Assembly (NCBI GenBank): GCA_964388485.1
Contig: CAYMAS010000008.1
Coordinates: forward strand, 24,423 to 88,422
Length of the DNA stretch: 64,000 bases
Source of the DNA: an uncultured Tepidisphaerales bacterium
Lineage (GTDB): Bacteria > Planctomycetota > Phycisphaerae > Tepidisphaerales > Tepidisphaeraceae
Direction of reading: 5' to 3'
The translations under genes and the position numbers were made by a program. Below are positions 3,557-48,638 of the stretch, in pieces. Each line of letters starts with the position of its first letter. Position 1 is the first letter of the stretch. The notes below the pieces were generated by a model. It was not told the DNA's origin. It made no database searches and saw nothing but the letters and a program-made list of their open reading frames with translations.

Positions 3557-3570
3557 GCCGCAAAACGTAC

Positions 3571-22473: not shown

Positions 22474-22723
22474 CGGATCCTCCAGACGATTAGGACGTCG
22501 CCGGCCCCACATTGAGGCCGGCAGGCTCTCCCACCTGATGATCGCCACAACCTCCTCCAACGCCGCCGAACCGGCGAAAAGATCGCAACGATGCGAACCT
22601 ATCGAAATGGGCAAGCCGTTGCAATCCCACCAGCCTCATCAGACAGATTTTTTCGCACATTCGGCGCTGGTGTCGGTTCTGGATCGCCGGCTCAAGCCAT
22701 AACGCACCCTTCGTCACTCTCGC

Positions 22724-22735
22724 TGCAACGTTGCA
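22724..22735. promoter_or_regulatory. Perfect palindrome TGCAACGTTGCA (LacI-type operator candidate)
   Basis: Lies in the divergent intergenic region, about 83 bp upstream of ATG 22813 and about 256 bp upstream of ATG 22473. A weaker relative, TCGCAACGATGCGA, is at 22583..22596. Confidence 0.65.
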
Positions 22736-26283: not shown

Positions 26284-26320
26284 CCGCACCGCCCAAGTAA
26301 GGCGGTGCGGTCGTTCGTTG
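26284..26320 (+). terminator. Hairpin terminator candidate for the 24653..26230 unit
   Basis: 10-bp stem CCGCACCGCC/GGCGGTGCGG (26284..26293 / 26301..26310), 7-nt loop, followed by TCGTTCGTTG. Confidence 0.5.
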
Positions 26321-26358
26321 GGGATTCGGTCCCGTCCTGACCCTCCCAACGTGGCCGT

Positions 26359-26393
26359 ACCAACAAAACGTCCACGGCTTCAGGCCGTGGACG
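26359..26393 (-). terminator. Intrinsic terminator for the 29058-to-26429 unit
   Basis: 10-bp stem 26369..26378 / 26384..26393, loop TTCAG. The minus strand continues TTTTGTTGG. Confidence 0.65.
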
Positions 26394-26428
26394 CGGGACA
26401 AGCTCCAAGCTTCAGCTCGTTACCAGGT

Positions 26429-28090
26429 TCAACCGATGGGGCGAAATTGGGCCGACAGATTCTGCCGCTTACGTCGCAGTCCGACGAGTCCGAGCAGCAA
26501 CCCACCGGTCGCGGCACCCGGCTCAGGCACGACGGTTACGGAACGATTAGCCAGCAGCGACGTGCGGTCGGCAGCAACAGCGTCAAGGTCGAGCAAGCTC
26601 TCCATCAGCAGGCCGATGCCGTCGACGGCTTCGTAGTAGTCCTTGCCGGCGTGGCCGCGGAAGATGCTGGTGCCGTCGACCCACAGCTTGTTGATCGCCT
26701 CGTCAGCCATCGCCCGACCCGTGAGCAGATACTCCTCCTCGCCCGTGACGGCGTAGAGGTAGGCGAAGAACGAGATGGTTCGGCCGTACGTCTCCGCGTG
26801 CGCGCCCAGCGGTGCCCAGTCGTCGGAGTAACCGTCGTACCACGTATCCTGCAGCGTCTCGTCAGCGGGCAGTTCGGACTTGATCCAGACGGCGAACCGT
26901 TCGGCGGCTTCCAGAAGGTTCGCATCGCCGGTCAGGTCGTAACCCAGGACGAAGCTGTTGGCCGTCGACAGCGGGTGCTCGTAGCCGAGCGTGTACGGCT
27001 GCCACAGATCCAGATGGCCGCGTGGTTCCGTGGCGGCGTAGGAGTCGTTGTCGAGCCGCGGGCCGGCGACCGGTGTGCCGTCGGTGCGAAGCGAGCCCCA
27101 GAACTTGCCCGTCGCATCGTCATAACCATATTCCGCGTACGCCGAGAGGTAGCCGGTGGCGATATCACGCAGCTCGGCGGCATCATCACCGACGAGGTCA
27201 TAAGCATCGAGCAGGGCGGCCGCGTGAGGTCCGGTCAGACCGGTCATGAACCGATTGCCGTCGAACCTGTTGCCACCGAGATTGGCAGCGTCGTCGACCG
27301 TGAGGTTCGTCGTCGTGTTGCGACGGCTCCAGTGATAGTTGCCCACGAGAAGCGAGCGATCGAGCCACTTCTGATCGCCGGTGGCGTCATAGGCGTGGGC
27401 GAACTGCCGAACGAACTCGCCGCTGGTCATCGCGAACGAGTGGCCCCGGTTGGGCGTGTCGTGGCGGTTGATTTCGCCGGTCGTCTTGTTGACGACGTGG
27501 AACTGCCATGCCGAATCCGCCTGCTGCTGGGCCACGGCCGGAGCAGCCCGCCACAGGTCATCCCACTCGACGGGCAGGATTGCATGCAATTCGTGGTGGT
27601 TGCCGTTGGCACTCTTGCGCGACTCGTCGGACACATCGATCCAGCGGTGCCAGCCCCACCAGATGAATCCTTTGTCTGTACGGCCGGCGTCGGTGAAGTT
27701 GCTCGTGTACGTGGTCGTGTAGGTGTCGGCGAAGTCGGAATAACGGTTGTCGCCGGTCAGGCTCGAGAGGTGGCGGAAAGCTTCGAGCGTCCGCTGGTCG
27801 GTGGCCAAGTTGGCACCGCCGGGATTGCGTCGGCCGCGGCGGTCAACCCGCCAATCTTCGTCGTACGCCAACGGGCTGCTCGGCATCGAGAGCGTGTTGA
27901 CGTCAAGGATGCTGACGAGGATCGGCTGACTCGTCGTTCCATAACGATCGGTACCGAATTGGAGCAACGTGTCGGCCGTGCGTTGGGCATAGGTGCCGTA
28001 GGTACCGACTTGTGCCGAGGAGACAGGCGTGGCCGCGAAGAGACTGGCCACGACGGCCGCCGAAGCGGCGGCAGAGAGTCGCGAGAACAT
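26429..28090 (-). CDS. Secreted alpha/alpha-toroid-like protein (polysaccharide lyase/hydrolase candidate) with PEP-CTERM anchor
   Basis: Signal peptide MFSRLSAAASAAVVASLFAATPVSSAQ (ATG 28090). Repeated helix-pair motifs (YDLTGDANLLEAAERF; YAVTGEEEYLLTGRAMA). Tail VVPEPGAATGGLLLGLVGLRRKR. Family not resolved. Confidence 0.5.
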   Translation of the reverse strand: MFSRLSAAASAAVVASLFAATPVSSAQVGTYGTYAQRTADTLLQFGTDRYGTTSQPILVSILDVNTLSMPSSPLAYDEDWRVDRRGRRNPGGANLATDQRTLEAFRHLSSLTGDNRYSDFADTYTTTYTSNFTDAGRTDKGFIWWGWHRWIDVSDESRKSANGNHHELHAILPVEWDDLWRAAPAVAQQQADSAWQFHVVNKTTGEINRHDTPNRGHSFAMTSGEFVRQFAHAYDATGDQKWLDRSLLVGNYHWSRRNTTTNLTVDDAANLGGNRFDGNRFMTGLTGPHAAALLDAYDLVGDDAAELRDIATGYLSAYAEYGYDDATGKFWGSLRTDGTPVAGPRLDNDSYAATEPRGHLDLWQPYTLGYEHPLSTANSFVLGYDLTGDANLLEAAERFAVWIKSELPADETLQDTWYDGYSDDWAPLGAHAETYGRTISFFAYLYAVTGEEEYLLTGRAMADEAINKLWVDGTSIFRGHAGKDYYEAVDGIGLLMESLLDLDAVAADRTSLLANRSVTVVPEPGAATGGLLLGLVGLRRKRQNLSAQFRPIG

Positions 28091-28245
28091 GGACGTCCGT
28101 TTCGTAGGAGAAGGTTTGGCCAGAGGCTGGCCCAAAGCGTCACCGGCGAGGTTAACACCGGCAACGCGTCTGAGGAGGAAGCGATGAGGCCTCCGAGCGA
28201 TAGACGGCCTCGACAGGATTACGATTGTCAGAGGACGTCACAGAA

Positions 28246-29058
28246 TCAGCGACGCCGACGGCAGGCCAGAAGGCCCACCAGGCCGATCGCGGCCAACGAA
28301 CTCGGCTCCGGAATCGCCGTCAGCGAGAGGTTGGCGTAGTCGACCGTGAACGTCGGGTCGTTCCGCTGGACGCTGTTTCGGATGCCGAAGTTGTCGCCAG
28401 CGAGCGGCATGTCGAGGGCGACCGTGCTGATCATGTCGGAACTGGTGCCTTCGGTAAGGTTGAACACCTGCAGCGACAGGGTGAGGTCGTCGTTGCTGTC
28501 ATAGGCACCGGTGAGCACGAGCTCGTAGGTGTCGGCGGCATCGAAGCTGAAGGTCGAGCTCGACGTGACGAGCTGGCTGCCGTTGCTGCCTTCCTCGGCA
28601 ATGCGGAACTCGCCGACGTTGCCGCCCCTGACGATGTAGTCGGCGAGGTAGTAGTCGCCACCGAAGCCGGCGGTGTCGCCGAGCACGCCGAGGCCGACGC
28701 GGCTGGTCGAGCCGCTGCCACCCGACAACGCGGTGACGTCGAACTCCGTCGAGAAGACGAAGCCGGCAGCAGGCCGATCCGCGGCGTCCACTGCGAAGGT
28801 CGAGCCAGGGCTGCGGTTGGAGTTGTTTCCCGTCGCCGTGTAGCTGAAGCGGTAGACGTTGTCGCCGCCACCGGCGTCGGTGACGGAGAAGTCACCAGCC
28901 GGGTTCTCGGTGTAAGTCAGCGATTCGTTGTCGACCGGGGCTGCCGACCCCAGGACCTGGCTGTCGAAGTCTTCGAAGTACGGAACGACGGCGGCCTGGG
29001 CCGACGAGGCGACGAAAACGGCCGCTGCGGCCGGGGCAAGAATTTTTAGGGTCTTCAC
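28246..29058 (-). CDS. Small LamG/ConA-like PEP-CTERM protein
   Basis: GTG start preceded by GGAGGA. Signal peptide MKTLKILAPAAAAVFVASSAQA, beta-rich Gly/Ser/Thr body, tail AIPEPSSLAAIGLVGLLACRRRR. Confidence 0.7.
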   Translation of the reverse strand: MKTLKILAPAAAAVFVASSAQAAVVPYFEDFDSQVLGSAAPVDNESLTYTENPAGDFSVTDAGGGDNVYRFSYTATGNNSNRSPGSTFAVDAADRPAAGFVFSTEFDVTALSGGSGSTSRVGLGVLGDTAGFGGDYYLADYIVRGGNVGEFRIAEEGSNGSQLVTSSSTFSFDAADTYELVLTGAYDSNDDLTLSLQVFNLTEGTSSDMISTVALDMPLAGDNFGIRNSVQRNDPTFTVDYANLSLTAIPEPSSLAAIGLVGLLACRRRR

Positions 29059-30639: not shown

Positions 30640-31470
30640 TCAGCGGCGGCGGCGCAGGCCGAGCAGGCCCATCAGGCCGAACGCCGCGATGCTCGTCGGC
30701 TCGGGAATGACCTCAGCCCGGGCTGCTTCGAGCGCGTTCAAGTCAAGTGCTTCGTTGTAGACCTGAATGTTGTCGAGGAAGCCGTCAAACGGCCGGCGTG
30801 TGTCGTCACGGTTGCCGACGTTGAAATTCTCGTTGCTGCCGAGTTGCTCGTTCAGCGTGATCGTCGAGGTGCCGAGGCTGACGACCGGCGTATCGATGCC
30901 GCCCGCGAACAGCTCGACCGTTCCTGCGTCGACTAGAGCGTCGAGGCCGTCTTCGCTGAAGGTGGCGGCAAAGAACACCCAGGTATCAACGTCATCGGTT
31001 AGGTCGTTGCCCACCTGAAAGTTCTGCCCGTTTCCAGTGGCAAACCGGAGGTCGCCGCTTCGGCCAAGGAGCTGGAACGGGTTGCCATCACCGTAACTGA
31101 CGAGACGCGTGTCACCTCCAATTGAAGCGCCCGAGGTTTTGTACCAACCGGCGACAGTAAAGTCGTCGCCCGCACTCAAAACGTTGACATTGCTCGCAGT
31201 GGCGATGGGGCCGTTGCCCGCGCCTTCGTCGCCGCCATTGCCCATGCCGATAGCGTCGGTCAAATCAAGGGCCTGGTCACCCGCCGCGCCTGTGACGCCA
31301 GTTCCTGCAGCACCCAAGACTGCGCCGTTGGCGAGGGTGAGGTCAACCGCGGTGCCCGAACTCGTGGTGGTACCGTTGAACTCGTATTCGAGAACAAGGG
31401 CTGCGTCGGCGACGACGGCCGAGGCGGCGACGGTGGCGGCTGCGAGGCCGAGGGTGGTGGGTAGGTTCAT
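30640..31470 (-). CDS. LamG (Laminin_G_3-like) PEP-CTERM protein
   Basis: GAGGAGAAAC before the ATG. Signal peptide present. FTVAGWYK...WVFFAATF...FNVGNRDDTRRPFDGFLDNIQVYNEAL is LamG_3-like. Tail VIPEPTSIAAFGLMGLLGLRRRR. Confidence 0.8.
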   Translation of the reverse strand: MNLPTTLGLAAATVAASAVVADAALVLEYEFNGTTTSSGTAVDLTLANGAVLGAAGTGVTGAAGDQALDLTDAIGMGNGGDEGAGNGPIATASNVNVLSAGDDFTVAGWYKTSGASIGGDTRLVSYGDGNPFQLLGRSGDLRFATGNGQNFQVGNDLTDDVDTWVFFAATFSEDGLDALVDAGTVELFAGGIDTPVVSLGTSTITLNEQLGSNENFNVGNRDDTRRPFDGFLDNIQVYNEALDLNALEAARAEVIPEPTSIAAFGLMGLLGLRRRR

Positions 31471-31512: not shown

Positions 31513-31526
31513 CTGCAACGTTGTAG
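31513..31526. promoter_or_regulatory. Operator-like site CTGCAACGTTGTAG
   Basis: Shares CGCTGCAACGTTG with the 22724 site. Lies in the divergent region between the 31470(-) and 31588(+) genes. Confidence 0.6.
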
Positions 31527-34651: not shown

Positions 34652-36802
34652 ATGAACAAGTCGAAGACCTCGAGATGGCGACTGCCACGTTCGAGCCTCC
34701 TGGCGATGCTGATCACGCTGATGCTGGCAGGTCCGCATGCTGCCAAGGCGCAGGATCGTGACCGGCTCGATCTGAGCCATGACTACGAGTGGAAGCCCCT
34801 GCTGATGGGTGCCGGAGGCTTCGTCACCGGGGTGGTCCTGCATCCAGAGGAGCCAGGCCTGATCTATGGCCGAACCGATGTCGGCAACGCTTACCGGTGG
34901 AGCGAGGACGACGAGGTTTGGACACCGCTCATCACGGACGCGTCGATGCCCGCTGGCATGCCGCCGCGGTCCCATGGTGTGGCGTCGATCGCGGTTGACC
35001 CGACAGACCCTGATGTCGTCTATATGGCCTTTGCCGCTCCGGACGAAGAAGGTACCATCTACCGCTCCGCCGACCGCGGAGCGTCCTGGACGCCTGGCGA
35101 CCTGCGGGTCAAGATCGCACCCAATGGCCTAGGCCGACTCGATGGGGAGCGGCTGGCGGTGGATTTCAAACGCCCAAACACGCTTTTCTACGGCTCGAAC
35201 AACAATGGCCTGTGGCAGAGTCAAGACGCCGGGGCGACTTGGAAGCAGATCACGAACGGCATTGCGAAGGATCTCGACGTCCGCGAAGTGCTCGTTGATC
35301 CGCAGGCGGCGATCGTCTACTGCATCGCCCGCGAAGATGCCGTTTACCGCTCGACCGATGGCGGCTCGACATTCGCCGCCATCACCGGCGGCCCGGATCA
35401 ACCTCCGACCGGCAACGACTGGCGGGATGCTGATCTCGGACCAGACAGCACGCTGTACGTCCTGAGCGATCGAACCAGCGGCATCTCCGGCAACGCGTCG
35501 GCGAGCGTGTGGCGATTCGACGCTAAATCATCGAAGTGGAGCGAGATCTCTCCCGCCGGCAACCAGGCCTCCTACATCGACTTGGCCGTCAACCCGTTTG
35601 ACGCCAACCACCTCCACGTCGCGCTCGGCAATGGCCAGAGCTTCCGCAGTCTCGACGGCGGCACAACGTGGAGCAAGCGTCTAGCCGTCTCGCGTGGTGA
35701 AGTCGACGTGCCATGGCATGCATGGACCAACGAAAACTGGTTCTCGACCGCCGACATCGCCTTCGATCCGCACGTCAGAAATCGCCTGTGGACCGCCCAA
35801 GGCATTGGCGTCTGGCGGACGAGCGATATCTTCGACCACGAAGTCACCTGGGCTGGCGTCTCGGCGGGCATAGAGGAGCTGGTCTGCAACGCCGTTATCG
35901 CTCCGCCGGGCGGGGACCCGATCACGATGGTCTGGGACCGCACCGGTTACCGGCACGAGAACCTCGACGCGTTCCCGGTCGATCACCTGCCGGGCGATGG
36001 TGTCGAGGGCGGCAACGACTTCTCCAGCGGCTGGGATGTTACCTATTCAGCTCAAAATTCGGACTTCGTGGCGATCATCAGCGAAGACTACCGCGACCGC
36101 AAGCCGCACTTCAGCGGCTGGAGCGACGACGGTGGCAAGACGTGGAACGTCTTCGAATCCATCGGCGACCCGCAGCTTCGCGGCAAGGACGACCCGAACG
36201 AGACACACCCGCCGCGGCTGTCGTTCGGCAACATCGCCGTCAGTGCGACCGACGTCGACCGCATGGTCTGGTTGCCGGGCACCGGCGACGTGCCGTACGT
36301 GACGGCCAATCGCGGCAAGACGTGGCAGCCCAGCAAGGGGACACCGGGCAACCTCATTGGCGCCCATTACCGCAACGTCAAAGCTCTGGCGGCCGACCCG
36401 ATCCAGGGCAACGTCTTTTGGCTGTGGAACCACCACTTCGATGGCGGCATCCTTCGCAGTGACGACTTCGGCAAAACGTTCAGCCCAATCGTCAGCAAAG
36501 GCCTGCCCGAGGGCGGACTCGACAACTTCGTCCACGGAAAATTCGCCGTCACGCCTGGACAAAGCGGGCACCTGTGGATCTGCGACATCGATCAGATCAA
36601 GAACCCGACCGACGGTGGCTTGTACCACAGCACGGACGGCGGCAAGTCCTTCCAGCGCGTCGGGCCGTTCCAAAAGCCGATCCAAATCGGCTTCGGCAAG
36701 GCGGCACCGGGCAGCGACTCGGCGACCGTGTTTGTCTACGGCGTCGTTGGCCAGGACTACGGCCTCTATCGCTCGATCAACGACGGTCGAAGTTGGGCCT
36801 AA
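34652..36802 (+). CDS. GH74-like double-propeller protein, secreted; truncated by a 1-nt frameshift (homology continues to 36974 in the +1 frame)
   Basis: GAGGA before the ATG. Signal peptide present. MGAGGFVTGVVLHPEEPGLIYGRTDVGNAYRW and the rest are collinear with the giant protein's N-terminal region. It ends GRSWA*, whereas the paralog reads GQTWDKIDNAPGGILD. Confidence 0.8.
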   Translation: MNKSKTSRWRLPRSSLLAMLITLMLAGPHAAKAQDRDRLDLSHDYEWKPLLMGAGGFVTGVVLHPEEPGLIYGRTDVGNAYRWSEDDEVWTPLITDASMPAGMPPRSHGVASIAVDPTDPDVVYMAFAAPDEEGTIYRSADRGASWTPGDLRVKIAPNGLGRLDGERLAVDFKRPNTLFYGSNNNGLWQSQDAGATWKQITNGIAKDLDVREVLVDPQAAIVYCIAREDAVYRSTDGGSTFAAITGGPDQPPTGNDWRDADLGPDSTLYVLSDRTSGISGNASASVWRFDAKSSKWSEISPAGNQASYIDLAVNPFDANHLHVALGNGQSFRSLDGGTTWSKRLAVSRGEVDVPWHAWTNENWFSTADIAFDPHVRNRLWTAQGIGVWRTSDIFDHEVTWAGVSAGIEELVCNAVIAPPGGDPITMVWDRTGYRHENLDAFPVDHLPGDGVEGGNDFSSGWDVTYSAQNSDFVAIISEDYRDRKPHFSGWSDDGGKTWNVFESIGDPQLRGKDDPNETHPPRLSFGNIAVSATDVDRMVWLPGTGDVPYVTANRGKTWQPSKGTPGNLIGAHYRNVKALAADPIQGNVFWLWNHHFDGGILRSDDFGKTFSPIVSKGLPEGGLDNFVHGKFAVTPGQSGHLWICDIDQIKNPTDGGLYHSTDGGKSFQRVGPFQKPIQIGFGKAAPGSDSATVFVYGVVGQDYGLYRSINDGRSWA

Positions 36803-36961
36803 GATCGATGACGCACCCGGCGGGATTCTCGACAAGATCACCTGCCTGAGCGGCGACATGGACGTGTTCGGTCGTGTCTACCTTGGCACGAGTGGCAACA
36901 GCTTCGTCTATGGAACGCCTCGGTCGTCCTTTGCCGCTGCTCCTTCCCTCAAACACGAATC

Positions 36962-38137
36962 ATGGCATCCTTGAACATCGGCGTCATCGGCGCGGGCATG
37001 ATCGCCCGCGGGGCGGTCAAGAGCATCAACCAGCACGACGACGTCAAGATCGTCGCCGCCTTCGATCCCGACGCCGAGCGACTGGCCTCGCTCCAAGAGC
37101 TTGGCGAGATCACGCGGACGCACAATTCGCGGCAGAAGCTGCTCGAGGATGACGAGTTAGACGCGGTTTATGTCGCCGTCCCGAACAAGTTCCACGCCGA
37201 GACCGCCCGCGCGGTTCTGCAGAGCGGCCGACACTGCCTGCTCGAAAAGCCGTTCGCCCTCAGTTATGCCGAGGCCAAGAGCGTCGTCGACGCGGCAGAC
37301 GAAAGCGGCAAAACCTTCATGCTGGGCATGAACCAGCGATTCGGCGCGGGTCGTCAGCGTGTTCGCAGACTCGTTCGCGACGGCGTGCTCGGCGAGATCT
37401 ATCACGCCAAGGGCTTCTGGATGCGACGCGGCGGTATCCCGAAGCTCAACACCTGGTTCGGCCACAAGAGTGCATCCGGCGGCGGGTGCATGCTCGACAT
37501 CGGCGTGCACATGCTCGACCTGACGATGTGGCTCGCCGACAACTTCCGGCCCACGAGCGTGCTGTCCAAAACCTACACGAAGTTCGGCCCGCGCGGCATC
37601 GGTGAGGGCGGCTGGGGGCTCAGCGATGCCGACCCGTCGCTCAGCTTCGACGTCGACGACTTCGCTAGCGCGCTCGTCACCTTCGAGAACGGCATGACGC
37701 TCGCGGTCGACGTCTCCTGGGCTGCGATGATGGAGGTCGATAGCCGTGAGGGCAGTCAGCTGTTCGGCACCGAGGCCGGCGCGAGTGTCGACCCGGCCAA
37801 GCTGCACCGCCTGGCCGAAGGCGTCGCCGCCCCGCAGGCCGAGGCCGACGGTTCAGATCCCAACGCGGCTGACGTGTCGAAGAGCGTTTACGAGACGCTG
37901 ACCATCGGCGACGAGGGAGCGGGCGAAGGCTCGCAGCAGGGCAGCATCGGCGTGCCGCTCGAGTACGAGCATTGCAACCGTTTCCACAACTTCATCAACG
38001 CCGTCCTCGGCCGCGAGGCCAAGTGCTGCCTCGACCACGAAGTGCTGACCGTGCAGAAGGTGCTCGACGCGATCTACGAGAGCAGCCGCACCGGCCGGCA
38101 GGTCGATGTCACGCCCGAAGAGCCCAAGGCGTCGTGA
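36962..38137 (+). CDS. Gfo/Idh/MocA family oxidoreductase
   Basis: LNIGVIGAGMIARGAV...VAAFDPD...AVYVAVPNKFHAE...HCLLEKPFA is the canonical family pattern. Confidence 0.85.
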   Translation: MASLNIGVIGAGMIARGAVKSINQHDDVKIVAAFDPDAERLASLQELGEITRTHNSRQKLLEDDELDAVYVAVPNKFHAETARAVLQSGRHCLLEKPFALSYAEAKSVVDAADESGKTFMLGMNQRFGAGRQRVRRLVRDGVLGEIYHAKGFWMRRGGIPKLNTWFGHKSASGGGCMLDIGVHMLDLTMWLADNFRPTSVLSKTYTKFGPRGIGEGGWGLSDADPSLSFDVDDFASALVTFENGMTLAVDVSWAAMMEVDSREGSQLFGTEAGASVDPAKLHRLAEGVAAPQAEADGSDPNAADVSKSVYETLTIGDEGAGEGSQQGSIGVPLEYEHCNRFHNFINAVLGREAKCCLDHEVLTVQKVLDAIYESSRTGRQVDVTPEEPKAS

Positions 38138-39516
38138 GCGACGACTTCCTGAAGCCGGCGTGGAGCGTCGACCTCGGCCAGCCGATCGGCCAGTGTCGGG
38201 CCGTGCCGGTGCGACTCGGCAGCGGCGGCGGGCACGACGGCATCGACGCGATTCTCGTCGTCGTCGGTGGCGATTTCGACGTCGACCCATTCAGCGAGAT
38301 GTTCTTCCTGCCGAGGGACACGCTGAAGCTCGTTCTGCTCGACGCCGTCGACGGCAGCGTGATCTGGCGGCAGGATTTGGGCCGCGGCGTCATTCCGGGC
38401 ATGTGGTTCTGCCCCGTGCTGCCGTTCGACCTGGACGGCGACGGCGTCGACGAGATCTGGCTCGTCACGGGCGAGCCGGACCATCCGATGACGGCCTACG
38501 ACGCAAAGCTCGAGCGTCGCGACGCGGCCACGGGTGAGATCACGGGCCGGTGGAAGTGGCCGATCAAGTTCGGGCACGAGGCGATGTCGAGCGTCTATCG
38601 CCGGTTTTTGATGCCGGCCTTCGTCCACGGCGAGGCGGTCCTCGTTGCCGGGCAAGGCACGTACGAAAACATGCTGCTGACGGCCTTCGACGCCCAGATG
38701 AACCAGCGATGGCAGACGGAGATGACAGCGGATGCGCCCGGTGCCCGTGGCAGCCACATGTGCGCGATCGTCGACCTCGACGGCGACGGAATCGACGAGG
38801 TGCTCTGGGGCGAACGCGTCATAAGGCTCAGCGACGGTCGCGAGCTGTTCTGCTGCGACCGCGACGTCTACCGCGGCCACAGCGACGTCGTCCAGCCGAT
38901 CCGGCTCGACGACGGCTCGTGGCGGATCTTCACCTGTCGTGAGGACGACTACGAGGCGAGCCCGCGGGTCGTGATGTTTGACGGCGAAGGCCGCCGGCTG
39001 TGGGGCCACGTCGACCGCGGGCACATCGATATGGGCTGGACCGCACGCATCGGCCCCGGCGGACGGCTCGTCACGACGGCGATCAAGATCGGCAAGAAGA
39101 CCTGCGGCCCCGACGGCCGATTTCATCAGGCGATCGAGGAGTTCGCCTTCGACACGATCACCGGCGAGCCGATCGAGCTGGGCTTCTCGCACTACCGCAC
39201 GCTGCCGGTCGACCTCGACGGCGACGGCCGACACGAACTGGTTCGCGGCCAGGCCAGCGGCGGCGGTGAGGTGTTAGACAGCGACGGCAACTTGCTTTTC
39301 GACCTCGGCGGGCCGGTCGCGATGCTCAGCCGCTTCCTCGACCTGCCCGGCGAGCAACTGCTGAGCTACCACGCCGACGGCGGACTGACAGCGTGGCACT
39401 GCCCGGGAGCCGTCGACACGCCCGCCGCGACGGTTCGGTATGCCGACGCGACCTACCGGACGAACCAGCGGCTGACGAGCAGCGGCTACAACCTGATCAA
39501 CCTCGGCGGGCTCTGA
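38134..39516 (+). CDS. FG-GAP/PL11-like calcium beta-propeller protein (rhamnogalacturonan-lyase-like), no signal peptide
   Basis: GTG start in a GTGA overlap with the upstream stop. Repeated DLDGDG(V/I)DE motifs, with tail YRTNQRLTSSGYNLINLGG. The upstream part of ORF 37972.. overlaps the oxidoreductase and is discarded. Confidence 0.45.
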   Translation: MSDDFLKPAWSVDLGQPIGQCRAVPVRLGSGGGHDGIDAILVVVGGDFDVDPFSEMFFLPRDTLKLVLLDAVDGSVIWRQDLGRGVIPGMWFCPVLPFDLDGDGVDEIWLVTGEPDHPMTAYDAKLERRDAATGEITGRWKWPIKFGHEAMSSVYRRFLMPAFVHGEAVLVAGQGTYENMLLTAFDAQMNQRWQTEMTADAPGARGSHMCAIVDLDGDGIDEVLWGERVIRLSDGRELFCCDRDVYRGHSDVVQPIRLDDGSWRIFTCREDDYEASPRVVMFDGEGRRLWGHVDRGHIDMGWTARIGPGGRLVTTAIKIGKKTCGPDGRFHQAIEEFAFDTITGEPIELGFSHYRTLPVDLDGDGRHELVRGQASGGGEVLDSDGNLLFDLGGPVAMLSRFLDLPGEQLLSYHADGGLTAWHCPGAVDTPAATVRYADATYRTNQRLTSSGYNLINLGGL

Positions 39517-39550: not shown

Positions 39551-39564
39551 GTGCAACGTTGCAC
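39551..39564. promoter_or_regulatory. Perfect 14-bp palindrome GTGCAACGTTGCAC (operator candidate)
   Basis: Ends about 33 bp upstream of ATG 39597. It is the best copy of the recurring motif. Confidence 0.65.
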
Positions 39565-39596: not shown

Positions 39597-41882
39597 ATGA
39601 CCCGCCCGACGAAGCGTCTCACTTCATGCGTTCGTCTCGCCCTCGCCGCTTGTCTGCTCGGCGGGGTTGCCGTCGCCTCGGCCGAGGAAGCCAAGCCCGT
39701 CGATCACTGGATCGAGCAGCGACGCGAGCAGCAGGCCCAGCAGAACGACGAGCGGCTGGCCGAGCTGCAGCTGGCGGCGGGCGTCTATCTCAGCAACAAG
39801 GGTGCCCGCGAGACGGCCGAGAAGACCGGCTTCCCCGAAGCCGCCGCGGCGCTCGAGCAGTACATGGCCGGCGAGGGCAAGGCTCTGCTCGCCAAGGTGC
39901 GGGCGGGCGAAGCGCTGACCGACGAGGAGCAGAAGTACCGCAACGTTGTCCTGGCCGTCTGGTACCGCGTCGGCCACAGCGCCGGGTCCGACATCAAGAA
40001 GGACCGCGAGCTGGAGCACGAGTACTACCTCGCAGACGAGCTCGATTTGTCTGCTGACGACATGCGGCAGGCGTATGCCGACCTCGGCAAGGCGAGGGAG
40101 CACGGCATCGAAGTGCTCCGCCAGGCTTACCTCGACGGCGGCATGCTCACGGCCGAGGATCTGCAGGCGATCGAAGACCTGCGCATCGCGTACAGCGGCC
40201 AGTCGATCAGCGAGATGTACCTGCCGGCGCAGCTCGGGTTCCACCCGCTCGCCCCGCGCAGCAAGCCCGACGGCGACTTCTCCTGGGGCCACGAGATCCG
40301 CCGCCAGTTGCCGGGCACGAAAGCACCGGACGTCCGGCGGGCGACGCTCGAAGCCGTCCGCGAACGTGACAGCTACACCGAAATCCCCGACTTCGCCCGT
40401 GGCTTCCGCTCTCTCGTCCGGCCGGACGGCGTGCTGGAGTATCTCGTTCCGATGAGCGGGTACGAGATGAGCGAAGTCGACGGCACGCCAATCGCGAAGC
40501 TGCCCGATAACCTCGCGGGTCCGGGCGGCGAAGGCACCGTCTCGGTGCAGGAGATCGTCGACGGCAAGCCGGTGCTCTTCTTCCACAACGACCCGGTCGA
40601 CCTGCCCTTCACGCGGGCGATCGACATGGTGCCGGTCGTGATGAAGGCGTACGAGGACGTCTTCGACTTCCACTTCGCCACCGTTGGCATCCACGACCGC
40701 AACTACGCCTCCAACCGCTTCTACGAGTTCGCCAATCCCAGCGGCAGTCTTCGGGTCGGGCACCACCACACGTGGGACGAAGAAGAGCGTGCCCGCCGAT
40801 TGAGCGTCATGCTCGTCCAGTGGCCGCAAAGTGACGTCTTCCCGGCGAGCGTCGACAACATGTTCGACCACACGAAGGACCGTTTTGCCGGCAACGGCGG
40901 GCAAAACCGGTACTACCTCGTCGGCCACGACGGCGTGATCAGCCACGAGAACGCCGGACCCTTCGAGGCGACGAACGAGTTCAATGTGGCCGAAGGCGCG
41001 ATGATCCGACTGCTCGAGAACGGCGGCACCGGCGTCGTCGAAGAGGCGGACAAGCTGCCCTACTTCGCCCCGAGCGACCCCGACCTGCTGATCACCTCGG
41101 CCGACGTGACGAAGGTCGATTCGGACGGCATCGAGCTGAGCTGGAACGGCAACACGTTCCGCGTCGAGCCGACCGAGCACGCCCGCGTCACGCTGAACCA
41201 CGAACCGGCCGAGCTGAACGACCTGCAGGTCGGCGACAAGGCGATCGTCTTCTCGCGGCTGAGCCGGGTGATGCCTGGCGTGAGCTTCGCATGGCCGGAC
41301 GTCGGGCACGAGCGCCTCAGCGAGCCGATGACGCTCGAACAGGACGGCCGGACCTTTGTCGGCCGCCGCTTGGGGCACATGAATTCGATGGACCAGCACG
41401 TCCTGCTGCTCGATGACCTCGACGGCATCGACGTCCTGCCAGGTACGCAGATCATGGGCCTGCGTGACCAGAAGCGGCACAATCGCCAGGAAACCTATGC
41501 CAACACGAGGATCATCTGGCGGGGCGGCCGCGTGACGGCGGTCGATCCCCAGACGCGGGAAGTCACCGTCGCCTGGCACGACTACGACACCGACGGTGTC
41601 AACGGCCGCTCCATCCTGAAGGAATGGGACGACGAGGGCATCGAGTACAAGCTCGACCGCGACACAAAACGTCGCCACGAAATCGTCGAGACCTGGATCG
41701 AAGCCGGCTCAGGAGAGTCGAAGCTCCACGTGCCCGATCACTGCGCGATCACGCTCAACGGCCGATACCAGAACGACATCGTTGCCGAGCCGGGGGATTT
41801 CGTCACCGCACGCTTCCCGCTGAACGTGATGGATCAAGGGACGCCGCCGACGAACTTCCTGCGGATCACCCGCCTGCCCTGA
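39597..41882 (+). CDS. Secreted protein consisting of the unassigned 'module X' (paralog of the giant protein's C-terminus)
   Basis: GGAGGAACCT before the ATG. Signal peptide ...LALAACLLGGVAVASAEE. 761 aa. Ordered shared blocks with 15830..18030(-), including HHTWDEEERARRLS (40761..40799). Confidence 0.85.
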   Translation: MTRPTKRLTSCVRLALAACLLGGVAVASAEEAKPVDHWIEQRREQQAQQNDERLAELQLAAGVYLSNKGARETAEKTGFPEAAAALEQYMAGEGKALLAKVRAGEALTDEEQKYRNVVLAVWYRVGHSAGSDIKKDRELEHEYYLADELDLSADDMRQAYADLGKAREHGIEVLRQAYLDGGMLTAEDLQAIEDLRIAYSGQSISEMYLPAQLGFHPLAPRSKPDGDFSWGHEIRRQLPGTKAPDVRRATLEAVRERDSYTEIPDFARGFRSLVRPDGVLEYLVPMSGYEMSEVDGTPIAKLPDNLAGPGGEGTVSVQEIVDGKPVLFFHNDPVDLPFTRAIDMVPVVMKAYEDVFDFHFATVGIHDRNYASNRFYEFANPSGSLRVGHHHTWDEEERARRLSVMLVQWPQSDVFPASVDNMFDHTKDRFAGNGGQNRYYLVGHDGVISHENAGPFEATNEFNVAEGAMIRLLENGGTGVVEEADKLPYFAPSDPDLLITSADVTKVDSDGIELSWNGNTFRVEPTEHARVTLNHEPAELNDLQVGDKAIVFSRLSRVMPGVSFAWPDVGHERLSEPMTLEQDGRTFVGRRLGHMNSMDQHVLLLDDLDGIDVLPGTQIMGLRDQKRHNRQETYANTRIIWRGGRVTAVDPQTREVTVAWHDYDTDGVNGRSILKEWDDEGIEYKLDRDTKRRHEIVETWIEAGSGESKLHVPDHCAITLNGRYQNDIVAEPGDFVTARFPLNVMDQGTPPTNFLRITRLP
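39938..39951. promoter_or_regulatory. Intragenic operator-like site CCGCAACGTTGTCC
   Basis: CAACGTTG core. Centre is 387 bp from the centre of the 39551..39564 palindrome. Confidence 0.35.
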
Positions 41883-41905
41883 AGCCGATTCGAAACACCT
41901 TTGTT

Positions 41906-44587
41906 ATGAAGACGATCACCACCACCGCGATTCTGTCGCTGGCCGTCGCCGCCGTTGCGACTGCCGAGCCGGCCGAGGAAAATCTCAACGACCGCCTGCC
42001 CGAACGCAGCGGCAACGACTACGGCTTTCGCGACTGGAAGGTCAGCGACGCCGACTTCAAGATCGTCAAGGATCGCCTCGTCCGCGACGGCGTCAGTCCG
42101 GAGCTCGTCGATCAATATCGGCCGTTCCTCAACAGTGCCGACCGTCGCGACGCCAATGAGGGCAGCTGGCAGAAGCGATACTTCAAGCCGGGGTACCCCG
42201 ATGGCCTCGGCAACGTCGAACTGGCGAAGCTCGGTTATCTTGATGTCACCGCTGCGCCCTTCAACGTCAAACCAGACGACGGCCGCGACGACACGCTGGT
42301 CCTGCAGGATGCGATCGACTTCGCTCGCGACCACCAGCTCGTCACCTACCTCCCGGCCGGCGAGTACAACGTCAGCGACACGCTGCACCTGGCCCAGGGC
42401 ACGACCCGCATGGCCGACGGCAAGATTAGCACGACCGACATGTACGGCGTCTACGTCGTCGGCGAAAAGACCAACGACGGCAAGCGGGCCCGCATCGTCC
42501 TGGCCGACGGCAGCTTTCCCAACGCCGACTCCACCCGCCCGCTCATCTACGTCCAGCGGGTCGGCGAGCCCAAGACGGGTCGCAAAATCAGTCGAAACTC
42601 TAACACCGTCAACTACGGCAACCTCGTCCACGGCCTCGAGCTCGTCCTAGGCGACAACCCCGGAGCGTGGGGCATCAGCTTCCAGGCGGCCGAGGGCTCG
42701 ACGATGCAGGATTTGGTCATCGACGCCCGCGGAGCCAACGGCGGCATCAACGGCTTTCCCGGCTCCGGCGGCGGAACCTTCGACATCACCGTCATCGGCG
42801 GCAAGGTCGGCGTGCAGAGCGACGAGTTCCCAGGGTCGGACGGCGTCGACTTCGAAGGTGCCACGCATACCCAGCCCGGCCCGACCATCGCGGGCATGAC
42901 GCTGATCGACCAGGAGCTCTACGCCATCGCCCACGAGAACCGCGGCAACCTCGTCGCCGTCGGCATCACGATCGAGACCGAAAAGAACGGCCCAGTCATC
43001 CGTACCCGCGAGCATTGGTGGGGCGATCCCTACGGCAGCAGCCTGGCCCTCATCGACGCGACCATCGAGTACAAGTCGGCCTCACCCGACAACACCGTCC
43101 TCGACGCCGGCCGCAGCGTCTGGCTCGAAGACGTCTACGTGAAGAACGCCGCCCACATCGGCGAGTCACGCTTTCCAGCCGCCTCGGGTCAGCCTTGGAC
43201 GCACGTGAAGGCGCTCGGCATCGCCAAGGAGCTCTGGACCGAGCCGCGGACGGCGAAGGTCAAGCAAGAGGACGGCAGCACGAAGGAAGTGACGGTCGAT
43301 GTCGACGAACGCGTCTACGTCGACGGCCAGCCGATCGGTGACTACCTGTACGAGTCGACCGGCGTCAGCCAGCCGCCGGCCGACGTGGCGACGCGGCACC
43401 AGATGGGCGATGTCCTGCCGGTGATGGACGATGCCCAGAACATCAAGGATCACGGCGCGATTGGCGACGGCACCGCCGACGACACCGCCGCGATCCGTAA
43501 GGCGATTCGGGCCGCCGGACCGGGCGGCACGGTCTTCGTGCCCAAGGGCGTCTTCGTCACGACGGACACGCTCGACCTGCTGCCGAACCAGACGCTCATC
43601 GGCGTGCATCACAAGCTGTCGAACATCGTCGGGGCCGAAGACGACAAGCGCGGCCGCTTCGGCAAGGACGACGATCCGACCACGGGCGAACCCGTCATCC
43701 GCACCGTCGATGCCGCCGACGACGAAACCGTCATCGGCATGATCGGCATTCGGCACGCACGGTCGATGGGCTCCCACGACCCGCGACCCATCGGCATCTA
43801 CGCCCTCGAGTGGCGAAGCGGCCAGGGCAAGGTCTTCGGCGTCGAGGCCAAGGCGGAGCTCAACACGAACTGGTGGGAACGCCAAGTCCTTCGCCTCCAC
43901 CTGAACGCCGACGACGCGAAGCTCGACGAGTACTACCAGTCCGACGAGCTCGGCAAGCTCGACCCCCGCGTCGGCTGGGAGATTCCGCACCCCGAAGGCA
44001 AGGGCGGCTACGGCAGCGGCCCGGGTCCCGACGGCTCATACCCAATTAGCCCAATCAGCCACCCGCTCGTCCAGGTCCGCGGCAACGGCGGCGGGCAGTG
44101 GTTCCAGTTCTGGAACCACGGCTACGACCCGGTCACCAGCGACTACCGCATCCTGCTCGTCGAGGACACGACCAATCGCTTCGAGGTCTATCACCTCCAC
44201 GGCCAGCACAAACGCTCCGACGCCCAGTTTGAAGTCCGCCGTGCCAAGAACGTCCACTTCTACGGCTCCAAGCAGGAAGTGCACGACACGTTCCTGCGAA
44301 TCGTCGACAGCGACGGCATCTACGTCTACGGCTACGCCGGCATCGGTGGGCCGTTCAAGAAGGGCGACGCGATCTACGAGATCGAGAACTCAACGAACGT
44401 GCTCATCACGACGCCCGGCGACGAACCGATCCTCAACAGTGCCGGCTACGGCCTGAGCAGCCCGCGCAGCCGGCTGTGGCGTCCGTTCGTCGGCGACTTC
44501 CACCTGGCGACCGACGACGCCACCGGCTCGACGCCGCCCGCCGCCCGCCCAGTCGCCTACATGCTCGGCGAGCCACTAGAGCAGTAG
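41906..44587 (+). CDS. Tandem pectate_lyase_3 / GH55-like double beta-helix protein, secreted
   Basis: Signal peptide MKTITTTAILSLAVAAVATAEP. Two copies of the N-cap motif (FNVKPDDGRDDTLVLQDAIDFA...YLPAGEY; IKDHGAIGDGTADDTAAIRKAI...VFVPKGVF). The upstream ORF extension to 41624 overlaps the previous gene and is discarded. Confidence 0.6.
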   Translation: MKTITTTAILSLAVAAVATAEPAEENLNDRLPERSGNDYGFRDWKVSDADFKIVKDRLVRDGVSPELVDQYRPFLNSADRRDANEGSWQKRYFKPGYPDGLGNVELAKLGYLDVTAAPFNVKPDDGRDDTLVLQDAIDFARDHQLVTYLPAGEYNVSDTLHLAQGTTRMADGKISTTDMYGVYVVGEKTNDGKRARIVLADGSFPNADSTRPLIYVQRVGEPKTGRKISRNSNTVNYGNLVHGLELVLGDNPGAWGISFQAAEGSTMQDLVIDARGANGGINGFPGSGGGTFDITVIGGKVGVQSDEFPGSDGVDFEGATHTQPGPTIAGMTLIDQELYAIAHENRGNLVAVGITIETEKNGPVIRTREHWWGDPYGSSLALIDATIEYKSASPDNTVLDAGRSVWLEDVYVKNAAHIGESRFPAASGQPWTHVKALGIAKELWTEPRTAKVKQEDGSTKEVTVDVDERVYVDGQPIGDYLYESTGVSQPPADVATRHQMGDVLPVMDDAQNIKDHGAIGDGTADDTAAIRKAIRAAGPGGTVFVPKGVFVTTDTLDLLPNQTLIGVHHKLSNIVGAEDDKRGRFGKDDDPTTGEPVIRTVDAADDETVIGMIGIRHARSMGSHDPRPIGIYALEWRSGQGKVFGVEAKAELNTNWWERQVLRLHLNADDAKLDEYYQSDELGKLDPRVGWEIPHPEGKGGYGSGPGPDGSYPISPISHPLVQVRGNGGGQWFQFWNHGYDPVTSDYRILLVEDTTNRFEVYHLHGQHKRSDAQFEVRRAKNVHFYGSKQEVHDTFLRIVDSDGIYVYGYAGIGGPFKKGDAIYEIENSTNVLITTPGDEPILNSAGYGLSSPRSRLWRPFVGDFHLATDDATGSTPPAARPVAYMLGEPLEQ

Positions 44588-44599
44588 GCGAACCTTCCG

Positions 44600-45811
44600 T
44601 CACGACGCCTCTGCCAGACGCTCGCGCCGCCACCGGCCGGGCGTCATGCCGCAGACCTGCACGAAGGCGTTCGTGAAGCTCGACTGGCTCGCATAACCGA
44701 CCGCCTGGGCGACGTCTGCCAGAACGATGTCCTGCCGCCGAAGCAGCGTCCGGGCCGCCTCGATCCGGATGCGACGGATCTCCTCAGCCGGCGTGCGGCC
44801 CAGTGATCGGACCATCTTCCGCTCGAGCGAGCGACGACTCACCGCGATCGACTTGCAGAGCTGGCCCACTGTCATCCCCCGGCACGCGTGGCGCCGCATA
44901 TGCGTCAACGCCTCGCGAACAGCCTCGTCTTGCACGGCCAGCATCTGCGTGCTCTGCCGGCCGACGACCTCCTTGGGCGGCACGGTCCAGACGTTGCCAC
45001 GACCGCCCGCGACCGTGTCGACGTCCCGGCCGTTCATGAGGGCATCGAGCAGCTTTGCCGCGACGCGGCCGACCTGTTCCACGTCGAGATCGACACTCGA
45101 CAAGGGCGTGCGAGCGAACTCCGCCAGCAGCTCGTCGTTGTTCACGCCGACGACGGCAACATCGTCCGGCACGCGCAGCCCGATCGACGCGGCAGCACTA
45201 AGCGTCACGATCGCCGCCCGATCGTCGACCACGAACATGCCGACGGGTGACGGGACCCGGTGAAGAACGCTCACCGCGTGCTCCTGTGTGACAAGCTCCG
45301 GCAAAACTCCCTCTGCAGATGGAAATCTGGCGTCACCCAGCGTGACGCAATCGGCATCGGCCTGCTCGATCTCGGCGACGAATCCGACTTGCCGTAGTCG
45401 CCCGACCCGCCAGCGTGTGCTCAGGCAGCCGAACCGCTTGTACCCGCGGTCGAGTAAGTGCCTCGCTGCTGCCCGACCCACCGCTTCTTCATCCGGCAGC
45501 ACCGACGGCAGCACCGCCTCGCCCGAAGACTCTGGATCGGCCGACGCTTCTGCAAAGACCGTGTGGTACAACGTGTTGACGATCGGCAGGTCCAGCTTCG
45601 CGACGACGGCGACCTCGGCTTCAGTCCGCGGGAGCACGACCAGGCCGTCGATAGGCATCACGCGGAGGCGGTCGACGGCTGCGGGCTCAAGAGCAGAAGG
45701 CACGATCTCGACGTTCCAGCCGTCTCTCTGGCGGCCGACGCTGCTCATGCCGCGGGCGAGGGCGATGAGGAGCGGAAGGTTGAACTGGCTGAGAATCGCA
45801 ACGTGCCGCAT
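44600..45811 (-). CDS. XylR-type regulator (periplasmic-binding-protein-like sensor + AraC HTH)
   Basis: N-terminal PBP type I-like domain. C-terminal AraC HTH (VGQLCKSIAVSRRSLERKM...VGYASQSSFTNAFVQVCGMTPGRWR). Confidence 0.8.
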   Translation of the reverse strand: MRHVAILSQFNLPLLIALARGMSSVGRQRDGWNVEIVPSALEPAAVDRLRVMPIDGLVVLPRTEAEVAVVAKLDLPIVNTLYHTVFAEASADPESSGEAVLPSVLPDEEAVGRAAARHLLDRGYKRFGCLSTRWRVGRLRQVGFVAEIEQADADCVTLGDARFPSAEGVLPELVTQEHAVSVLHRVPSPVGMFVVDDRAAIVTLSAAASIGLRVPDDVAVVGVNNDELLAEFARTPLSSVDLDVEQVGRVAAKLLDALMNGRDVDTVAGGRGNVWTVPPKEVVGRQSTQMLAVQDEAVREALTHMRRHACRGMTVGQLCKSIAVSRRSLERKMVRSLGRTPAEEIRRIRIEAARTLLRRQDIVLADVAQAVGYASQSSFTNAFVQVCGMTPGRWRRERLAEAS

Positions 45812-47569: not shown

Positions 47570-48565
47570 TCAGTCGGTCCAGTCGAAGACACTCGTCGCC
47601 CGCTTACCTCTTGTCTCGAATGCCGCTGCGTAGGCCGAATCGGCTTCGGCGGGGCAGAAGGGCGTTCCGTAGAGGTCGTCGAGCCGCAGACGCCCCTCAC
47701 TCATCAGCCGCAGCACTCGCTTTCGAGCAGCCGGCCCCTCGTCGCGTGGCAAGAGGAACGTCGTCTCGACCATGAACGCCAAGTTGTACGGGATGCTGAA
47801 GTCGCCGGGATAGCTCCCTTGGATCAGGTAGCGCGGCGGCAAGGTGCGGGTGCCCCAGTCGCGGCTCTTGAGCAGCGAGATGGCGTGCGGCAGGACCCGC
47901 TCGACACCCGTTGCATCACAGATGATGTCGAAGTAGCCGAAACGCTCGACGGCGTCTTCACCTAGCGGTTTGTCGAGGCCGGGCTCGATGACTATTGCAT
48001 TTAAACCGGCGTCGACGGCCTTGCGACAACGGGACGGGCTGACATCGGCAGCGACTGTTTCGCACTCGATGTGAAACAGCCGCGACGCGATCTGCCCGAT
48101 CAGGCCGAGACCCAAGACGAGGACACGTTCCCCCGGCTGCGGCGTCGCGCGATCCACGCCGTGCGAAGCGATTGCGGCCATTTTGGAAAGACTCGCCTCA
48201 ACCAGCTCCACGCCATCGGGAATCTGCCGGACGTCTGAGGCGACACACAAGGATGCAGAGGCGTGGCCGCCCCAGAGCCGCTGCAATTCGTCGGGCAAAT
48301 CGCCACCACCCAGCACGACGCGATCACCTTCCGCGAACTGATCCGATCGCGTCTTGATCACCACGCCCGCCGAGCTGTAGCCGGGAACGAGGGGAAATCG
48401 GCTGCCGGGCTGGTCGCCCGAAAGCACCCGTCGCTCGGTACCCGGGCTGACGGCGGAGTAGTCGGTTCGCACCAACACCTCACCGCTGCCGGGATCAGGC
48501 AGATACACGTCTCGCAACGCGATGGACTCGGCAGCTTCGAAGACGATGCACGTAGCAGCATTCAT
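47570..48565 (-). CDS. MDR-family (zinc-type alcohol/polyol dehydrogenase-like) oxidoreductase
   Basis: GEVLVRTDYSAVSPGTE...VPGYSSAGVV...VLVLGLGLIGQIA (GxGxxG) pattern. Confidence 0.75.
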   Translation of the reverse strand: MNAATCIVFEAAESIALRDVYLPDPGSGEVLVRTDYSAVSPGTERRVLSGDQPGSRFPLVPGYSSAGVVIKTRSDQFAEGDRVVLGGGDLPDELQRLWGGHASASLCVASDVRQIPDGVELVEASLSKMAAIASHGVDRATPQPGERVLVLGLGLIGQIASRLFHIECETVAADVSPSRCRKAVDAGLNAIVIEPGLDKPLGEDAVERFGYFDIICDATGVERVLPHAISLLKSRDWGTRTLPPRYLIQGSYPGDFSIPYNLAFMVETTFLLPRDEGPAARKRVLRLMSEGRLRLDDLYGTPFCPAEADSAYAAAFETRGKRATSVFDWTD

Positions 48566-48624: not shown

Positions 48625-48638
48625 TTACAACGTTGCAC
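48625..48638. promoter_or_regulatory. Operator-like site TTACAACGTTGCAC
   Basis: CAACGTTGCAC half identical to the 39551 site. About 99 bp upstream of ATG 48736. Confidence 0.55.

Follow-up and report, generated by a model that had tools for sequence, protein, structure and literature searches.

A secreted module with a predicted cysteine-free thioredoxin-type core, free-standing and fused to a GH74 giant, is a candidate new component of glycan breakdown

Introduction

The described proteins closest to the module reported here are the exported proteins of the TlpA/ResA/Redoxin type (PF08534, PF00578), whose context is cytochrome maturation, the deiodinases, in which a peroxiredoxin-like fold carries an insertion, and the C-terminal region of M. 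tuberculosis DipZ (2hyx, 5cyy), where an extracytoplasmic thioredoxin-like domain is joined to a β-sandwich or barrel resembling a carbohydrate-binding module (CBM). In UGGT of the calnexin cycle, a carbohydrate-related multidomain protein, thioredoxin-like domains without catalytic cysteines serve as recognition scaffold (PMC7687155). Here we analyse a 761-residue protein encoded by the open reading frame at 39597..41882 on the + strand of a 64,000-nucleotide stretch of contig CAYMAS010000008.1 from an uncultured Tepidisphaerales bacterium (the window, to which all unlabelled coordinates refer), and a second copy of the same module of about 730 residues, which forms the tail of a giant protein headed by a GH74 double propeller. 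A preliminary description, made by reading the sequence, had noticed this pair and suggested that it belongs to a glycan-degradation system.

The module shares with TlpA/ResA proteins its export, its core fold (template modelling (TM) score of 0.70-0.71 with ResA) and a common sequence pattern, GKKPVLL(x)6 before the active-site position and P.LLDD...GG....LID.DG.I after it. Unlike them, it has an aspartate for the first cysteine, no second cysteine and Gly-Gly for the cis-proline. Its core forms part of a 730-residue architecture, between a helical N-domain and C-terminal barrels, and falls below Pfam thresholds, and its context is that of loci for carbohydrate-active enzymes (CAZymes), not of cytochrome maturation. 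The deiodinase cores (Dio2, 9h48; Dio3, 4tr3) and the module are both peroxiredoxin-like folds with an insertion. After strand β2, deiodinases carry an IxEAH motif; the conserved His/acid motif found there in the module is IHD. However, identity with the deiodinases is 14-15%, the module has no Sec/Cys nucleophile, and reductive dehalogenation is chemically impossible with Asp. DipZ likewise differs from the module in that it keeps its CxxC and belongs to a membrane electron-transfer protein, and its overall TM score is low (0.3). UGGT is eukaryotic, resident in the endoplasmic reticulum and attached to a GT24 domain; no relationship of sequence or architecture to the module is implied. Finally, the C-terminal barrels of some family members give weak profile matches to DUF5666 (PF18914) and CusF (PF11604), which stay below significance for the 761-residue protein.

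Results

The window holds two paralogous copies of a rare secreted module

BLASTP aligns the free protein (residues 38-761) with the giant (residues 1534-2262; 15829..18015, − strand) in a single collinear stretch, with 276 of 742 positions identical (37%), 54% positives and an E-value of 1e-135. The free protein and the tail of the giant are true paralogues. The preliminary description had aligned both copies end to end by eye and placed the fused one at about 15830..18030; the computed alignment agrees with this extent, is strongly significant and contains every motif block that had been listed, including LA(D/E)LQLAAGVY, YLADEL(N/D)L, GVLEYL.PM, VSVQE..DGKP, HH(S/T)WDEEERARRLS and the common TRLP end. 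The N-terminus of the free copy, MTRPTKRLTSCVRLALAACLLGGVAVASA with the cut before EE, shows the n-, h- and AxA-regions of a type I signal peptide when read by eye, without a predictor, and homologues of the protein have equivalent N-termini, which agrees with the earlier view of a secreted module. Compared with its orthologue in a metagenome-assembled genome (MAG) of the Tepidisphaerales, the free gene has a ratio of nonsynonymous to synonymous substitution rates (dN/dS) of 0.16. As this is similar to the value of its neighbours (0.16-0.26), the module is a constrained coding gene.

The other part of the giant also has a separate counterpart. A free-standing gene at 34652..36974 (+), whose 716-residue product is homologous to GH74 xyloglucanases of the PDB (6p2m, E=2.6e-71), is 50% identical to the N-terminal part of the giant. 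Since both GH74 and module are also encoded alone, the giant is a fusion of paralogues of two separately encoded genes, and the Rosetta-stone pair proposed earlier is borne out within the window. The pairing of GH74 with the module does not recur in the other genomes compared. The module itself showed no GH74 homology in Pfam or in the PDB sequence search.

The family to which both copies belong is rare and has not been annotated before. The 761-residue protein gave no Pfam or NCBIfam match at E≤0.1 and no match in PDB sequences, where neither the single sequence nor the full and core-only profiles yielded anything significant (E≥0.08). An exhaustive HMMER search of 1.84 billion representative proteins found 99 clusters (50% identity) at E≤1e-3, 54 of them at ≤1e-10 and 16 at ≤1e-30. 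A word-indexed search of 5.8 billion proteins, run with the single sequence and with 3-sequence and 57-sequence profiles, returned one protein, the 94%-identical orthologue from the uncultured Tepidisphaerales MAG. Scanning for the family identified 2 loci in genome contigs and none in metagenome contigs. Most members are free-standing proteins of 550-800 residues, all database copies are named 'hypothetical protein', and our literature search found no description of the family. The preliminary description, which knew of no family for the module, is borne out in Pfam, NCBIfam and PDB sequences, and no full-length match to a characterised family emerged from these or from the structural search described below. 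Its suggestion of a planctomycete-type component proved too narrow: members span Tepidisphaerales, Pirellulales and a Verrucomicrobiota MAG, and one (P0068) bears the sorting tail of the type IX secretion system.

The predicted core adopts a thioredoxin/peroxiredoxin-type fold

The structure of the 761-residue protein was predicted with AlphaFold2 from an alignment of 57 family sequences, which led to a mean local confidence (pLDDT) of 90.4 and a pTM of 0.90; a model based on 3 sequences only (pLDDT 33) was not used. The signal peptide/helix (residues 1-29, also read from the sequence) precedes a predicted helical N-domain (residues ~35-200), an ordered linker (201-285) and an α/β core (286-480; 40452..41036, +). 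The C-terminal region (residues ~495-761; 41079..41879, +) has the secondary structure of small β-barrels resembling DUF5666/CusF. It comprises a first small barrel (residues ~495-560), a variable inserted β-domain (~560-635, modelled at ~575-625) with low alignment occupancy and a last barrel with a helical insert (~638-761).

When the model was compared with the PDB by Foldseek, no structure matched its full length (TM normalised to query ≤0.18). The top 50 matches are all proteins of thioredoxin/peroxiredoxin fold and all cover the core, with Foldseek probabilities of 0.85-1.00 (≥0.97 except for four NHLRC2 chains). The best is mouse deiodinase 2 (Dio2, 9h48; E=1e-4, TM 0.64); the C-terminal domain of DipZ (2hyx, E about 5e-4), Dio3 (4tr3; E=1e-3, TM 0.61) and archaeal peroxiredoxins are also found among the top matches, and ResA superposes with a root-mean-square deviation of 2.3-2.4 Å over ~147 columns. 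With a central sheet, flanking helices and the thioredoxin/peroxiredoxin topology, the modelled core is of thioredoxin/peroxiredoxin type. The preliminary description, which had called for this structural search, could not place the module in any family. This statement stands at the profile level and can now be refined: the predicted core is a cysteine-free thioredoxin/peroxiredoxin fold, and the C-terminus bears a weak resemblance to DUF5666/CusF. At the sequence level, Pfam matches among the 57 members are weak and few: Redoxin in 2, AhpC-TSA in 1 (best E 1.4e-4), CusF_Ec in 2 and DUF5666 in 1. The PDB CusF matches the family profile weakly as well (E=0.27), and P0081, which contains four DUF5666 stretches, matches the family in the first C-terminal barrel only (profile residues 496-542).

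An invariant aspartate takes the place of the redox cysteine

At the column of the nucleophilic cysteine of thiol-disulfide oxidoreductases and peroxiredoxins, all 57 sequences have an aspartate, which is D335 in the free protein (codon 40599-40601) and residue 1831 in the giant. The surrounding core reads like TlpA/ResA ('...vrLSdfrGkKPVLLvf..p.D.f...'). With the core-only profile, 'kKPvlLilndavDaa' aligns with 'dKPVLVDFWAAWCGP' of thioredoxin, so that D335 falls on the first cysteine of WCGPC, and 'GGq..ivLiDkdGki' aligns with the cis-Pro strand of YkuV. These PDB alignments were used for register only, because their E-value is about 0.1. In this weak alignment G434-G435-Q436 occupies the position of the cis-Pro loop, and the two glycines are found in 48/57 and 51/57 sequences. 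Several further residues of the core are well conserved: A399 in all 57 members, E466 and P410 in 54 each, D367 and D420 in 53 each, R400 in 49, H391 in 46 and R398 in 43. The conserved site residues are all kept in both window copies.

The mature 761-residue protein contains a single cysteine (C716), located outside the core, and the giant's copy contains none. As Asp replaces Cys in 57/57 sequences and the core is devoid of cysteine, the sequences exclude thiol-disulfide, peroxidase and deiodinase chemistry for the module. The profile searches agree with this: the protein lies outside the Pfam gathering thresholds of Redoxin and AhpC-TSA, no family being found at E≤0.1, and it has no match to T4_deiodinase (PF00837). 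In thioredoxin-fold proteins, the N-terminus of helix α1, the end of strand β2 and the loop before strand β3 converge on the active site. On account of this convergence, the former pocket would be lined with the conserved acidic, His and Arg residues.

Family members lie beside and within carbohydrate-active proteins

The link to glycan degradation was proposed from the window and holds outside it, as the neighbours and fusions found at other loci support a role in extracellular glycan processing. GH9 genes adjoin members in two loci, L006, together with a sulfatase, a trehalase-like glycoside hydrolase (GH) and AraC regulators, and L007, together with RGL11_C, a PQQ propeller and an FGE-sulfatase/BNR gene. 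A GH88 gene adjoins the member of L011, a Hepar_II_III lyase lies directly upstream of that of L012, and L010 contains GH129+CBM4_9, an SSF symporter, GFO and FGGY. Three representatives (P0038, P0045 and P0029) are fused to GDSL/SGNH esterase domains. Searching with the family profile showed that 5 of 10 loci (the window, L004, L007, L014 and L016) each hold 2-3 paralogues, and GFO genes lie near members in 2 loci. The only other recurrent neighbours in an all-against-all comparison were sulfatases and an SDR of ~230 residues, found in three loci each.

The SDR lies near members in L004 (788-1486), L014 (11271-11969), which also has an FGE-sulfatase domain fragment, and L016 (12974-13660). 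These homologous genes are carried by unrelated contigs, and the three loci always hold two family paralogues. From this gene arrangement, the SDR is a possible functional partner of the family.

In the window, an RGL11-like FG-GAP β-propeller gene recognised with Pfam (37972..39516, +) lies directly upstream of the free module gene. Twenty-four nucleotides downstream begins an RHGA-like β-helix gene (41906..44587, +; PF12708), whose 893-residue product has a signal peptide. The module and the RHGA-like gene probably form one operon, because their adjacency is conserved in the closest relative. The surrounding cluster contains apiosidase-like, GH43-like, Pectate_lyase_2-like, β-helix, sulfatase, GH74, GFO/IDH/MocA and GH2-like genes, and AraC-type regulators. 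The + strand open reading frame 26318..28339 (673 residues) gave no Pfam match and was rejected as a gene. It is probably a shadow of the minus-strand gene at 26429..28135, which matches Pectate_lyase_2 and for which JGI has a gene call (553 residues, ~26429..28090); the window corresponds to contig Ga0450804_1180397 of JGI metagenome 3300040801.

The giant gene (15697..22473, −) encodes, according to Pfam, a GH74 double propeller, a CBM6/35, an F5/8 type C (F5/8C) and a GH115_C-like domain, followed by the module. It is listed as an open reading frame of 2305 codons at 15697..22614 (−). Its start is probably M48 at 22473, as a GGAGGA Shine-Dalgarno sequence precedes this codon and the 2258-residue NCBI version agrees. 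Residues 48-100 (22230-22473, −) show no classical signal peptide, and the N-terminus carries the planctomycete extracellular motif LEHRRLLA (PF07595; weak, E=0.06). The CBM6/35 and F5/8C matches all lie before residue 1310, outside the module, which itself has no Pfam CBM match in the 761-residue protein. Residues ~1022-1192 (~19039-19551, −), between CBM6/35 and F5/8C, have no Pfam assignment, and no GH115 catalytic domain accompanies the GH115_C-like domain (residues 1348-1506).

The free-standing GH74 gene shows an apparent +1 frameshift (GCC T AAG) near 36797, within 36780-36810. The open reading frame of 716 residues (34652..36802) ends in '...NDGRSWA*', and the conserved ~55 C-terminal residues matching the giant (KIDDAPGGILD...GRVYLGTSGNSFVYG) continue in another frame to 36974. 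Either the assembly is wrong here or the gene has recently become a pseudogene.

The locus differs from its closest relative around a conserved module-RHGA pair

In the orthologous locus of the Tepidisphaerales MAG (L001), the module gene directly follows a sulfatase gene and precedes RHGA, and GH74 is absent within 10 kb. The block comprising GH74, GFO/IDH/MocA and the RGL11-like gene (34652-39516) is absent at this position. The three-gene block is an insertion or deletion polymorphism and looks like an insertion relative to L001. No GH74 was found either in L004, L006, L007, L010, L011, L012, L014 or L016. The preliminary description had stated that the module accompanies a GH74-like propeller at both of its positions. 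Within the window this is correct, as the two are fused in the giant and GH74 lies upstream of the free copy on the same strand, but the association is not conserved in L001 or the other loci. The divergent giant of L001 (1-1770, −) bears an RHGA-like head on the same stalk of CBM6, F5/8C and GH115_C, and lacks the module. The two otherwise syntenic giant enzymes differ by a head swap.

The module is 94% identical to its MAG orthologue, versus 57-87% for the neighbouring genes. Over the tract 39597-44587, compared with 10001-15009 of L001, the synonymous divergence (dS) is 0.19 for the module and 0.52 for RHGA, but reaches 0.74-1.07 in the flanking genes and 0.74-1.57 over all other genes that the clusters share, at similar dN/dS. 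Stronger purifying selection on the module was rejected as the origin of its high identity, as its dN/dS resembles that of its neighbours and its dS is 4-5 times lower. Since a low dS is combined with a similar dN/dS, the 94% identity would reflect recombination or transfer and not exceptional constraint, which points to a module tract recently recombined or transferred between lineages.

An exact 12-nucleotide palindrome, TGCAACGTTGCA, lies at 39552..39563, 34 nucleotides before the ATG of the module gene, and is a candidate operator. A sequence search of the window found a second exact site at 22724..22735, lying between the giant and the gene at 22813, which are divergently oriented, and two sites with one mismatch, at 31514..31525 (between 30640..31470 (−) and 31588 (+)) and 48626..48637 (between 47570..48565 (−) and 48736 (+)). 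All four are intergenic, versus 0.11 sites expected in shuffles. The candidate regulon extends with the last one past the CAZyme cluster, to the genes 47570..48565 (−) and 48736 (+). The palindrome is also conserved 45 nucleotides upstream of the L001 orthologue, in spite of a different upstream gene. As the site is kept while the upstream gene differs, the module and RHGA genes would seem to be controlled as a unit of their own within one regulon. Both copies of the module had been described as lying behind the same palindromic operator: the palindrome itself is borne out, being over-represented and also kept in front of the orthologue, but its assignment to the giant is less clear, because the 22724 site is ~250 nucleotides from the giant's likely start and only 78 nucleotides from where the opposite gene begins (22813). 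No LacI-type regulator was found in the window, which encodes only AraC-type ones (3550..4458 and 44600..45811), and a scan for sigma-70 promoters and terminators around both palindromes gave nothing useful.

Discussion

The family described here is rare and previously unannotated, and its architecture is unprecedented, yet it is built on a well-known fold and lies in a well-known type of gene cluster. We consider it probable on balance that the module, once secreted, assists polysaccharide breakdown as an accessory unit without redox function, and that its CxxC pocket has been rebuilt as a putative carboxylate/His site that binds or transforms a glycan or its substituents. In the model, the chain comprises, after its signal peptide, a helical domain, the thioredoxin/peroxiredoxin-fold core and DUF5666-like β-barrels. 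The invariant D335 replaces the redox cysteine at the N-terminus of helix α1, with the nearly invariant D367, H391, R398, R400, D420 and E466 around it in the sequence and Gly-Gly at the cis-Pro loop, and the former CxxC pocket may serve as a catalytic or a metal/ligand-binding site. The module would act outside the cytoplasm, on the glycan or its substituents, alongside backbone-cleaving enzymes. Its putative partners are GH74 and the probably co-transcribed RHGA-like β-helix enzyme in this genome, and GH9, GH88, lyases, sulfatases and SGNH esterases elsewhere. Several points weigh against this proposal. The spatial clustering of the conserved residues is derived from the topology of the thioredoxin fold, and an Asp at a helix N-terminus may be conserved purely as a structural N-cap. 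Fusion to different catalytic heads, and a position after the three CBMs of the giant, would suit binding or anchoring better than a second catalytic domain. PVC genomes are rich in CAZyme and sulfatase genes, so that some chance co-occurrence within 10 kb is to be expected, and the contexts of L014, L016 and L004 contain no classical CAZyme apart from the fused esterase.

We regard a purely non-catalytic role as a serious if less likely possibility: the module would be a non-catalytic scaffold that binds polysaccharides, or docks or anchors partner enzymes at the cell surface, and its Asp would be a helix cap or a structural Ca2+ site. Such a scaffold would be in keeping with the location of the module C-terminal to CBM6/35, F5/8C and the GH115_C-like domain, with the unrelated catalytic heads fused to it (GH74 here, SGNH esterases elsewhere) and with its OB-like C-terminal barrels resembling DUF5666/CusF; several paralogues per locus would fit hetero-oligomers, and redox-dead thioredoxin-like domains are known as recognition scaffolds in UGGT (PMC7687155). 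However, what the whole family conserves is a set of Asp, Glu, His, Arg and Gly residues at the canonical thioredoxin active site and not the aromatic platforms of CBMs, no Pfam CBM is recognised in the module, and ~730 residues under purifying selection are large for a binding module. The same residues could instead define a new carbohydrate-active catalytic scaffold: D335, D367, D420, E466 and H391 would serve a hydrolase, lyase or esterase dependent on carboxylates or on a metal, the founder of a new CAZy family. We put this forward tentatively and think it rather unlikely, although it would explain the fusions and clustering with GH74, GH9, lyases, sulfatases and SGNH esterases and the presence of 2-3 paralogues per locus.

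A narrower role as obligate second component of GH74, working only with the double propeller on xyloglucan-like substrates, is suggested by the fusion in the giant, by the 50%-identical GH74 paralogue three genes upstream of the free copy and by GH9, another β-1,4-glucanase family, adjoining members in L006 and L007. It is improbable, as GH74 is missing within 10 kb of the 94%-identical orthologue, which is accompanied by an RHGA-headed giant devoid of the module, the eight other loci listed above lack GH74, the GH74-GFO-RGL11 block looks inserted relative to L001, and the free-standing GH74 gene is frameshifted. More improbable still is that the module is a conventional periplasmic thiol oxidoreductase, peroxiredoxin or deiodinase-like reductase, or a Sco/CusF-like copper protein, that lies in a CAZyme cluster by chance. 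Its best structural matches are indeed deiodinases, DipZ, peroxiredoxins and ResA, 2-3 of 57 members weakly match Redoxin or AhpC-TSA and two match CusF_Ec, and NAD(P) oxidoreductases recur nearby (SDR in 3 loci, GFO in 2). But the nucleophile position holds Asp in 57/57 members, never Cys or Sec, cysteine is absent from the giant's copy and from the core of the free one, the 761-residue protein has no Redoxin, T4_deiodinase or CusF match at E≤0.1, and sequence similarity to the PDB reaches only E about 0.1. For thiol chemistry, a redox reading is essentially refuted.

PVC bacteria (Planctomycetota, Verrucomicrobiota) break down recalcitrant polysaccharides of plants and algae, and many of the proteins they use for this have no known function. 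The present family, tied to known glycan-degrading enzymes by gene fusion and gene neighbourhood, is a good candidate for a new component of this breakdown. It is also a concrete experimental target, being rare and exported, with a confident predicted model and D335 as a mutational handle. If the module is catalytic, it would add a fold so far unused by carbohydrate-active enzymes and a new cysteine-free repurposing of the thioredoxin active site. If it is non-catalytic, it would still define a new type of accessory unit, for binding or docking, by which bacteria without SusC/D systems equip their large secreted enzymes.

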